From IMG/VR virus record IMGVR_UViG_2695420373_000007: 14,555 nt of DNA; one strand, given 5' to 3'. Positions 11,594 to 12,268 of the stretch are shown here, piece after piece. This DNA comes from a virus (Duplodnaviria > Heunggongvirae > Uroviricota > Caudoviricetes). Position numbers and translations under genes: made by a program. The first letter of the stretch is position 1. The number at the start of each line of letters is the position of its first letter. The notes under the pieces were generated by a model. The model did not search any database. It was given only the letters and a program-made list of their open reading frames with translations, and was not told where the DNA came from.

Positions 11594-12268
11594 ATGAAAA
11601 ACACTATCAGCGAACGTATTCGGAATCGTCGAAAAGACGTTGGATTAACCCAACAGCAGGTTGCGAAAGCAATCGGCATATCTCGTGTATCCGTAACAAA
11701 ATGGGAAAATGGCTCTTCAAAACCTGACGGTGAGAATTTGTATCTACTGTCAAAATTGCTTTCCAAATCTCCTGAATGGATTCTTTATGGAAAGGACGGT
11801 CACGATAAAGCCGATGATCTGCGTCTGAATCAGTACCCTTACATTAGTGACAACATCGCCCGGTTGCCCGTTTTAACGTGGGAACAGGCTGGTTATTGGG
11901 ATATGAGTTGTCCAGTAACCGAGATTCCTGGTATTAAGAATTGGGTTGATGTCATGACAAAAACCGCTGAAAACTCTTTTTTATTGCATGTTGAGGGAGA
12001 TGCGATGACAAACTCTAACGGCCTCCCAACCATCCCCGACGGATCTACCGTGCTGATCACACCATGCTCAAGTAACATTAGAGAACTGGTGGGAAAAATA
12101 ATCTTAATCCAATTGGAAGGAACGCCAAACGTAACACTAAAAAAAGTTGCGATTGACGGACCAAACATCTATCTGTTGTCACTGAATCCGCTTTACAAAC
12201 CCATCGAACTGAATGGTGGTTACACCATTAAAGGTAAAGTTTCACAAATACATCAATACTTAGACTGA
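11594..12268 (+). CDS. cI: CI/C2-type prophage repressor (N-terminal HTH, C-terminal S24 LexA-like domain) with Ala at the nucleophile position
   Basis: The ORF track starts at 11552; I prefer the ATG at 11594 because MKNTISERIRNRRKDVGLTQQQVAKAIGISRVSVTKWENG matches the P22 C2 N-terminus (MNTQLMGERIRARRKKL...) and the second operator palindrome ends right before it. C-terminal domain aligns with lambda CI (VEGDAMT vs VEGNSMT; TLKKVAI vs TFKKLIR). Confidence 0.85.
   Translation: MKNTISERIRNRRKDVGLTQQQVAKAIGISRVSVTKWENGSSKPDGENLYLLSKLLSKSPEWILYGKDGHDKADDLRLNQYPYISDNIARLPVLTWEQAGYWDMSCPVTEIPGIKNWVDVMTKTAENSFLLHVEGDAMTNSNGLPTIPDGSTVLITPCSSNIRELVGKIILIQLEGTPNVTLKKVAIDGPNIYLLSLNPLYKPIELNGGYTIKGKVSQIHQYLD

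Follow-up and report, generated by a model that had tools for sequence, protein, structure and literature searches.

A widespread natural allele of a lambdoid immunity repressor carries alanine in place of the S24 nucleophile and is probably not self-cleavable

The 14,555-nucleotide stretch of DNA analysed here (the window; IMG/VR record IMGVR_UViG_2695420373_000007) is the early region of an Escherichia coli lambdoid prophage. Its plus strand carries, at positions 11594–12268, an immunity repressor gene whose 224-residue product is annotated as a ‘LexA family protein’ (WP_000103686.1). The domain fold, the general base and the scissile bond of an S24 peptidase are all present in this protein, but the serine nucleophile of the G-x-S-M motif is replaced by alanine. 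We consider it likely that the gene encodes a functional immunity repressor that is naturally unable to cleave itself, leaving the prophage blind to the SOS response at the level of the repressor.

The nucleophile position is occupied by Ala137, encoded by GCG at 12002–12004 (plus strand) within the codons GTT GAG GGA GAT GCG ATG ACA, and the motif reads G-D-A-M-T. A phmmer alignment with lambda CI (3bdn, E value 4e-14) places ‘lhvegdAmtnsnglptipdg’ on ‘levegnSmtaptgskpsfpdg’ and ‘vtlKKv’ on ‘ftfKKl’, bearing out a preliminary description of this DNA that had reported alanine at the S24 nucleophile and a retained partner lysine (TLKKV against TFKKL). This lysine is Lys183 (AAA, 12140–12142, plus strand), the general base, equivalent to Lys192 of lambda CI and Lys156 of LexA and lying in an invariant column. 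Also kept is the self-cleavage site of the family, Ala99-Gly100 (GCT GGT, 11888–11893, plus strand), which is embedded in WEQAGYW and aligns with ‘vqAGmf’ of lambda; in an alignment of the repressor with 25 relatives, Q98, A99 and G100 are nearly invariant.

Every Ser-bearing member of this 26-sequence alignment reads G-[DE]-S-M, and no other serine in the C-terminal domain is invariant across it, which leaves no different conserved serine to take the nucleophile position. Among full-length relatives the column is serine in 127 of 147, as it is in all 21 relatives from GTDB species representatives. Threonine stands there in six of the 147. Apart from the Ala alleles described below, the non-Ser relatives mostly lack the Ala-Gly site too, and all are metagenome singletons.

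Judging from deposited structures, exchanging serine for alanine is the standard change for making LexA uncleavable. Entries named ‘LEXA S119A MUTANT’, ‘LexA C-domain S160A’ (Mycobacterium tuberculosis) and ‘LexAS125A’ (Pseudomonas aeruginosa) exist, and engineered S-to-A LexA crystallised uncleaved, even on RecA filaments. Because the substitution found here is this same inactivating change, the repressor is probably not self-cleavable. The earlier classification as a CI/C2-type repressor made non-cleavable by a Ser-to-Ala change is thus upheld for the residue, the fold, the lysine and the Ala-Gly site, and for the loss of cleavage it holds as a sound prediction from the sequence.

The protein is a two-domain repressor. 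Its N-terminal helix-turn-helix (HTH) domain (HTH_3, residues 9–63, 11618–11782, plus strand; Pfam 62.6 bits) is closest to the N-domain of P22 C2 (phmmer to 1adr, E value 1.4e-12), with a Foldseek template modelling (TM) score of 0.94 to 3jxb. The C-terminal domain (residues 92–216, 11867–12241, plus strand) matches Peptidase_S24 (PF00717, 61.2 bits) end to end, covering model positions 1–115 of 116. An AlphaFold model with a predicted local distance difference test (pLDDT) score of 77 has lambda CI and LexA as its top Foldseek matches (probability 1.00) and supports the S24 fold; its active-site loop is unreliable. An N-terminal HTH, a divergent cro and operator sequences on both sides of the gene give it the make-up of a CI/C2-type repressor. 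From this anatomy, together with the purifying selection described below, we infer that it represses PR and PL and confers superinfection immunity.

The NCBI Prokaryotic Genome Annotation Pipeline (PGAP) starts the protein at an upstream ATG (11552), giving 238 residues. We prefer the ATG at 11594, because an OR3-like site directly abuts it and because homologues at 44–52% identity begin at the equivalent codon. The 14 additional PGAP codons (11552–11593) overlap the operators, with NIGY corresponding to AACATTGGTTAC, and their frame is open in all alleles. An N-terminally extended repressor form shows up on induction in Gifsy-3 (PMC3121763), and by analogy the upstream ATG may be used under some conditions.

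The sequence GTAAC-N4-GTTAC occurs exactly only three times in the window (11532, 11580 and 12343), each time flanking the repressor gene, and we assign these sites as putative operators. Two of them, at a spacing of 48 bp, fall between the cro and repressor genes: an OR1-like candidate beside cro (GTAACAATAGTTAC, 11532–11545), identical in all five divergent alleles, and an OR3-like candidate (GTAACATTGGTTAC, 11580–11593), conserved across alleles and abutting the repressor ATG. Between the two is a weak, possibly OR2-like site (TCAACCATAGCAAC, 11555–11568), 23 and 25 bp from its neighbours, whose left half GTCAAC is kept in all alleles. The third exact match, a putative OL-like operator (GTAACTCTTGTTAC, 12343–12356), is situated just 3′ of a TTGACT hexamer and 5′ of the ydfA-dicF-dicB operon. 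These operators recur in each of the five divergent alleles that could be read. In lambda, the position of OR3 relative to the leaderless cI message (the PRM transcript) matches the placement of the 11580–11593 site.

The divergent cro (P22_Cro family, 71 residues, 11287–11502, minus strand; Pfam 59.4 bits) completes the switch. Downstream of the repressor gene, the sequence contains a terminator-like hairpin (AACCCGCA-TTCAT-TGCGGGTT, 12274–12297, plus strand) followed by a T-run, which the terminator scan did not call because the T-run is too short for its rule. A promoter scan found no consensus promoters in the switch region.

The Ala allele is common. Of 5426 complete E. coli genomes, 702 contain the cro-repressor stretch, 609 of them at 99% identity or higher. 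A population survey of serine against alanine at the codon, an idea of the preliminary description, located a 71-nucleotide query centred on the codon in 686 complete E. coli genomes. In 681 of these it matched exactly with GCG, and the TCG version matched exactly in none; all 80 IMG/VR loci have GCG as well. The recurrence of the GCG context in 681 of 686 genomes excludes a sequencing error.

Codon 137 is GCG in all 85 pooled sequences of the window-type allele (21 haplotypes), with no reversion, and the C-terminal domain varies among these haplotypes by 21 synonymous and 4 non-synonymous changes. A second Ala allele, P0002 (89% identical, GCG), differs from the window allele in this domain with a synonymous divergence (dS) of 0.69, a non-synonymous divergence (dN) of 0.036 and an omega (dN/dS) of 0.05. 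Since omega is this low at such a dS, the C-terminal domain has long been under strong purifying selection despite the absent nucleophile. By contrast, in a degenerate relative from Arsenophonus (P0015) both the Ala-Gly site and the entire motif are gone.

The phage collection contains no repressor above 60% identity to this one. Three phage records exist for a Ser-type relative found in 20 genomes, against none for the Ala allele in 702; we give this contrast little weight, as some phage records look like prophages extracted from genomes (bioRxiv 10.1101/2022.06.29.498070).

The Ala allele occupies three attachment sites. It sits in a degraded prophage adjoining yccA in O111:H- strain 11128, where the integrase is frameshifted and insertion sequences (IS) have entered; in an intact-looking prophage at ompW in sequence type (ST) 131, for which no induction data were found in the literature; and in a complete lambda-like prophage at potC in strain ML35, which runs from integrase through tail fibres. 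It is found about equally often with either of two unrelated replication modules. Within 10 kb on either side, the repressor has only three regular companions, cro (80 of 80 loci), ydaT (75 of 80) and ydfA (66 of 80). The immunity cassette has thus moved between different lambdoid backbones and has stayed nearly identical.

Alanine is not the only state found in this immunity group. In a neighbour-joining tree the window allele pairs with P0002 (both Ala; node value 65%), a Ser allele, P0003, joins them (100%), and a Salmonella Ala allele, P0005, follows (90%); beyond these lie P0006 and then all more distant relatives, every one of them Ser. The nucleophile codon is GCG in the window and in P0002, TCA in P0003, GCA in P0005 and TCG in P0006. 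With an Ala allele in Salmonella as well, any reading of this tree has the position changing state at least twice within one immunity group, by a single base each time.

The Ser sister allele, about 87% identical (WP_028985609.1 and close variants), is present in eight complete-genome records, all with TCA. A Shiga toxin 2 gene (stx2) lies downstream of Q in five of the six Ser-allele prophages that could be read: STEC434 (Stx2d), JNE120393 and JNE170426 (both Stx2a), ECA64 (Stx2c) and O178:H19 2012C-4431 (Stx2a). The sixth, from a yak isolate, has the same backbone without stx. At this Q-downstream position none of nine Ala-type prophages (the window, O111 11128, ST131, ML35, the P0002 locus and four further carriers) has stx. 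The contrast, 5 of 6 against 0 of 9, gives p = 0.002 by Fisher's exact test, and it agrees with the report that the S24-type CI clades of Stx phages all keep serine (PMC8951638).

The two forms share their recognition elements. In the Ser-allele Stx2 prophages the two OR operators are identical to those of the Ala type and have the same spacing, the OL half-sites also agree, Cro shares 87% identity and the HTH differs very little. Given the identical OR operators and nearly identical HTH, the Ala and Ser forms are predicted to be homoimmune.

Two observations on single Stx2 prophages may be recorded here. The Ser-type repressor of the ECA64 Stx2c prophage (NZ_CM144250.1, repressor at 12585–13301 of that stretch) reads WEQVGYW and not WEQAGYW, and this scissile Ala-to-Val change may be a further natural alteration of the self-cleavage apparatus in this immunity group. 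The STEC434 Stx2d prophage contains a gene annotated ‘phage antirepressor protein’ (2000–2695 of that stretch) inside its lysis cassette; no antirepressor is annotated in the lysis cassettes of the ML35 and ST131 Ala-type prophages.

We propose that a lambdoid (Qin/Rac-style) prophage uses this protein as its functional immunity repressor. The HTH domain of the repressor would bind the GTAAC-N4-GTTAC operators on both sides of the gene and thereby silence the rightward cro-ydaT-replication and leftward ydfA-dicF-dicB operons, and the S24-fold C-terminal domain would be kept for dimerisation and cooperativity. Because alanine stands in for the nucleophilic serine, no acyl-enzyme step could occur and activated RecA could not trigger self-cleavage and so remove the repressor, which would make this a natural ‘ind-’ allele. 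The prophage would stay silent during SOS, sparing the host both lysis and the expression of DicB and DicF and favouring vertical inheritance. Such an advantage of vertical carriage would explain an excess of Ala over Ser of about 87 to 1 among sequenced genomes. The Ala state is of long standing, has been maintained and greatly outnumbers the Ser state in the same immunity group, from which we infer that it represents a selected way of life for stable vertical carriage and not a fresh lesion.

Several points weigh against this proposal. The loss of cleavage is read from the residue itself, and the AlphaFold model has low confidence precisely at residues 136–145, the active-site loop. No Ala allele, not even the Salmonella one at 70% identity, departs from the Ala-Gly site and Lys183; residues long without a function would not be expected to persist in this way, and they may still serve in cleavage in trans or in a RecA-dependent role other than catalysis. 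The cassette is near-identical across backbones, attachment sites and distant E. coli lineages, which implies recent horizontal movement, and an element that moves in this way must either form virions or recombine with other phages. The complete-genome set is skewed to clinical lineages, so that neither the 87 to 1 ratio nor the share of about 13% of genomes is a population frequency. Finally, the Stx2 contrast comes from few prophages, some of which may be related.

Part of this would be accommodated if the repressor, while not cleaving itself, were inactivated in trans after DNA damage, either by an antirepressor of the same or a co-resident prophage (cf. Gifsy, 186 and N15) or by a Ser-bearing S24 protein cutting the Ala-Gly bond intermolecularly. 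We regard this as rather unlikely. The retention of Ala-Gly and lysine in all Ala alleles over a dS of about 0.7 or more speaks for it, as does the wide and recent spread of the allele, which implies that the phage still moves. Also in its favour, intermolecular cleavage by LexA and CI is established (Kim and Little 1993, cited in PMC8951638); trans-cleavage by either protein is slow, which counts against this route. Antirepressors can work across prophages (PMC3121763), but no antirepressor is evident by annotation or PHROG in the complete ML35 prophage, and Pfam and PHROG scans of the early genes without assigned function in the window and in the ML35 prophage yielded no recognisable antirepressor, although small proteins of this kind could escape such scans. 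A search with a matrix built from E. coli LexA sites likewise found no LexA-box gene common to the carriers, and only cro, ydaT and ydfA are consistently linked to the repressor.

Cleavage by the ImmA-like protease of the same prophage is very improbable. The preliminary description had pointed to an ImmA-like gene as a possible derepression route, and an M78 metallopeptidase with a HELGH motif is indeed encoded at 5989–6465 (minus strand). In ImmR/ImmA systems the master repressor is both neighbour and substrate of the M78 protease; here the gene is 5 kb from the repressor and is co-transcribed with an Xre neighbour of its own, between terminators. It is also too rare to be a partner, with 56 genomes against 702 for the repressor and 3 of 80 repressor loci; it is absent from the O111, ST131 and ML35 prophages, and in strain F8704-2 it is in a different prophage, 318 kb from the repressor. 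As a general route the ImmA-like protease is therefore largely refuted. Self-cleavage through another nucleophile, such as a neighbouring Thr, Ser or Cys, seems to us hardly credible. Threonine does occupy the column in six of 147 relatives, and Thr139 follows Met138 in the window repressor, but lambda CI likewise has threonine after the methionine and still needs its serine, the C-terminal domain has no other conserved serine, and S-to-A variants of LexA crystallised uncleaved. Decay of the gene within a dead prophage, with alanine one lesion among many, would fit degraded carriers such as O111 11128, and is nonetheless highly unlikely: omega is 0.05 in the C-terminal domain both between and within Ala alleles, with 21 synonymous changes to 4 non-synonymous ones in the window type; the operator sequences match exactly and are conserved; the allele also occurs in prophages that look intact; and the truly degenerate Arsenophonus relative has lost both the whole motif and the Ala-Gly site. 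A functional immunity repressor that does not cleave itself thus remains our preferred reading.

Beyond the switch, the minus strand of the window contains cro, a YdaT-family gene, a replication gene, DUF977, hok/sok, the Xre-M78 pair, DUF968, RusA, a Q-type antiterminator, a DNA methylase and three tRNAs, and the plus strand holds the repressor followed by ydfA, DicF RNA and dicB. The YdaT-family gene (10865–11290, minus strand; Pfam) is in the position of cII, and YdaT acts like CII in CP-933P (PMC8630535). The leftward, PL-like operon (12541–13799, plus strand), identified by Pfam, Rfam and tblastn presence in related loci, comprises ydfA (DUF1391, 12541–12693, plus strand; Pfam), a 128-residue open reading frame (ORF), DicF RNA (13385–13436, plus strand; Rfam 76.7 bits) and dicB (13611–13799, plus strand; Pfam). 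Rfam matches at 13385–13436, 7222–7396 and 1104–1620 correspond to DicF RNA, to the sok antitoxin RNA, and to three tRNAs and the small RNA STnc100. Long minus-strand ORFs at 13472–14526 are spurious overlaps of dicB and ydfD.

The leader between the OL-like operator and ydfA (12380–12540) contains two blocks that are invariant across alleles, GGGTTAAGTAGCCAGCCCGAGGCG.A.GAACATGACGGC and GTTCCGC..GGCGTTAAGGG, even among alleles whose coding regions are synonymously saturated. The leader has no Rfam match, its RNAalifold fold is weak with almost no covariation, and no N-like gene follows PL. One possibility is that it forms a nut- or put-like antitermination RNA.

The insert that carries the ImmA-like gene (5640–6900, minus strand) was found in 56 of 5426 E. 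coli genomes. Between its terminators an Xre-type HTH gene (6468–6827) overlaps the M78 gene, after which come a terminator, a palindrome (CCTGTGTGGATTCACAGG, 5841–5860), a 49-residue Cys-rich ORF (5821 down to 5672) and a second terminator. The insert may represent a defence module, or one made up of a regulator, a protease and a small protein. The sole exact CTGT-N8-ACAG core in the window (5843–5858) has a poor interior and belongs to this insert.

The matrix of E. coli LexA sites gave one strong LexA-box-like site (TACTGTAAAAATATCCAGTT, 2692–2711, minus strand), which scores above the median of known E. coli boxes and coincides with codons 3–9 of the N6/N4 DNA methylase gene (ATG at 2719); it may mark an SOS-controlled phage methylase. 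The box is also present in the ST131 and P0002 prophages, but neither the ML35 nor the O111 carrier has it, so it does not go with the repressor.

Taken together with the Stx2 contrast, the distribution of alleles leads us to a tentative suggestion, which we hold at clearly less than even confidence. One lambdoid immunity group may exist in two states, toggled at the S24 nucleophile (TCA Ser against GCA/GCG Ala): serine would be kept in Stx2a, Stx2c and Stx2d phages, where SOS induction pays, and the SOS-blind alanine form would dominate stx-negative prophages, in about one in eight sequenced E. coli. Because the OR operators are shared and the HTH and Cro are nearly identical, a resident Ala-type prophage would be expected to exclude these Stx2 phages and, as a dominant ind- allele, to repress them in a double lysogen even during SOS. 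The Ala form could then naturally and widely hold back Stx2 conversion and the release of toxin.

If the two forms are homoimmune, carriage of an Ala-type prophage could limit both acquisition and induction of one group of Stx2 phages, which bears on the emergence of Shiga toxin-producing E. coli (STEC) and on antibiotic-triggered toxin release. About 13% of complete E. coli genomes carry the Ala-type prophage, ST131 and O111/STEC lineages among them. Antibiotic-induced prophage induction is usually predicted from the presence of an ‘S24’ or ‘LexA family’ repressor, and such an annotation can hide an unresponsive one. The allele pair is also a natural single-residue experiment on the effects of SOS deafness for temperate phage and host, with the Ser sister in Stx2 phages as a built-in control.

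Among the closest known systems are lambda CI and P22 C2, which share with the window repressor the two-domain architecture, the fold, the positions of Ala-Gly and lysine, the divergent cro, the three-site operator region and an additional operator beyond the gene. Laboratory ind- mutants (LexA S119A; lambda CI changed at Ser149 or Lys192) include the same S-to-A substitution; here it is natural, dominant and conserved in a widespread immunity group. HK022 CI was considered as a natural S-to-A precedent and set aside, as it has GDSM. The CB repressor of N15 likewise combines HTH_3 with Peptidase_S24 (Pfam 35.9 bits) and a non-working active site, and has been shown to be non-proteolytic (PMC10432266), but it has lost the serine (GNQI), the lysine (TIQR) and the Ala-Gly site, whereas the window repressor lacks the serine alone. 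N15 also has a LexA-controlled antirepressor, AntC (cited in PMC3121763), while none was found for the window repressor.

Other lambdoid or P2-like immunity repressors without self-cleavage, namely Gifsy GfoR/GtgR, DicA, PaaR2 and 186 CI, share the cro/YdaT and dicB neighbourhood; unlike the window repressor with its complete, selected S24 domain, they are short (about 130–150 residues) or lack S24. Gifsy and 186 are induced via LexA-controlled antirepressors (PMC3121763), and PaaR2 is unresponsive to mitomycin C (PMC8630535). The CI proteins of Stx phages (clades I–VII, Fagerlund et al. 2022) are linked to the present group by the 87%-identical Ser allele with identical OR operators in Stx2a, Stx2c and Stx2d prophages; their S24-type clades keep serine (PMC8951638), whereas the window allele has alanine and 0 of 9 Ala-type prophages carry stx. 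In the literature we searched, neither this allele nor a natural S-to-A CI is described. Non-cleavable immunity repressors as such are already known; what is new here is a complete S24 domain with a lone nucleophile substitution as the dominant natural allele, alongside a Ser twin in toxin phages.

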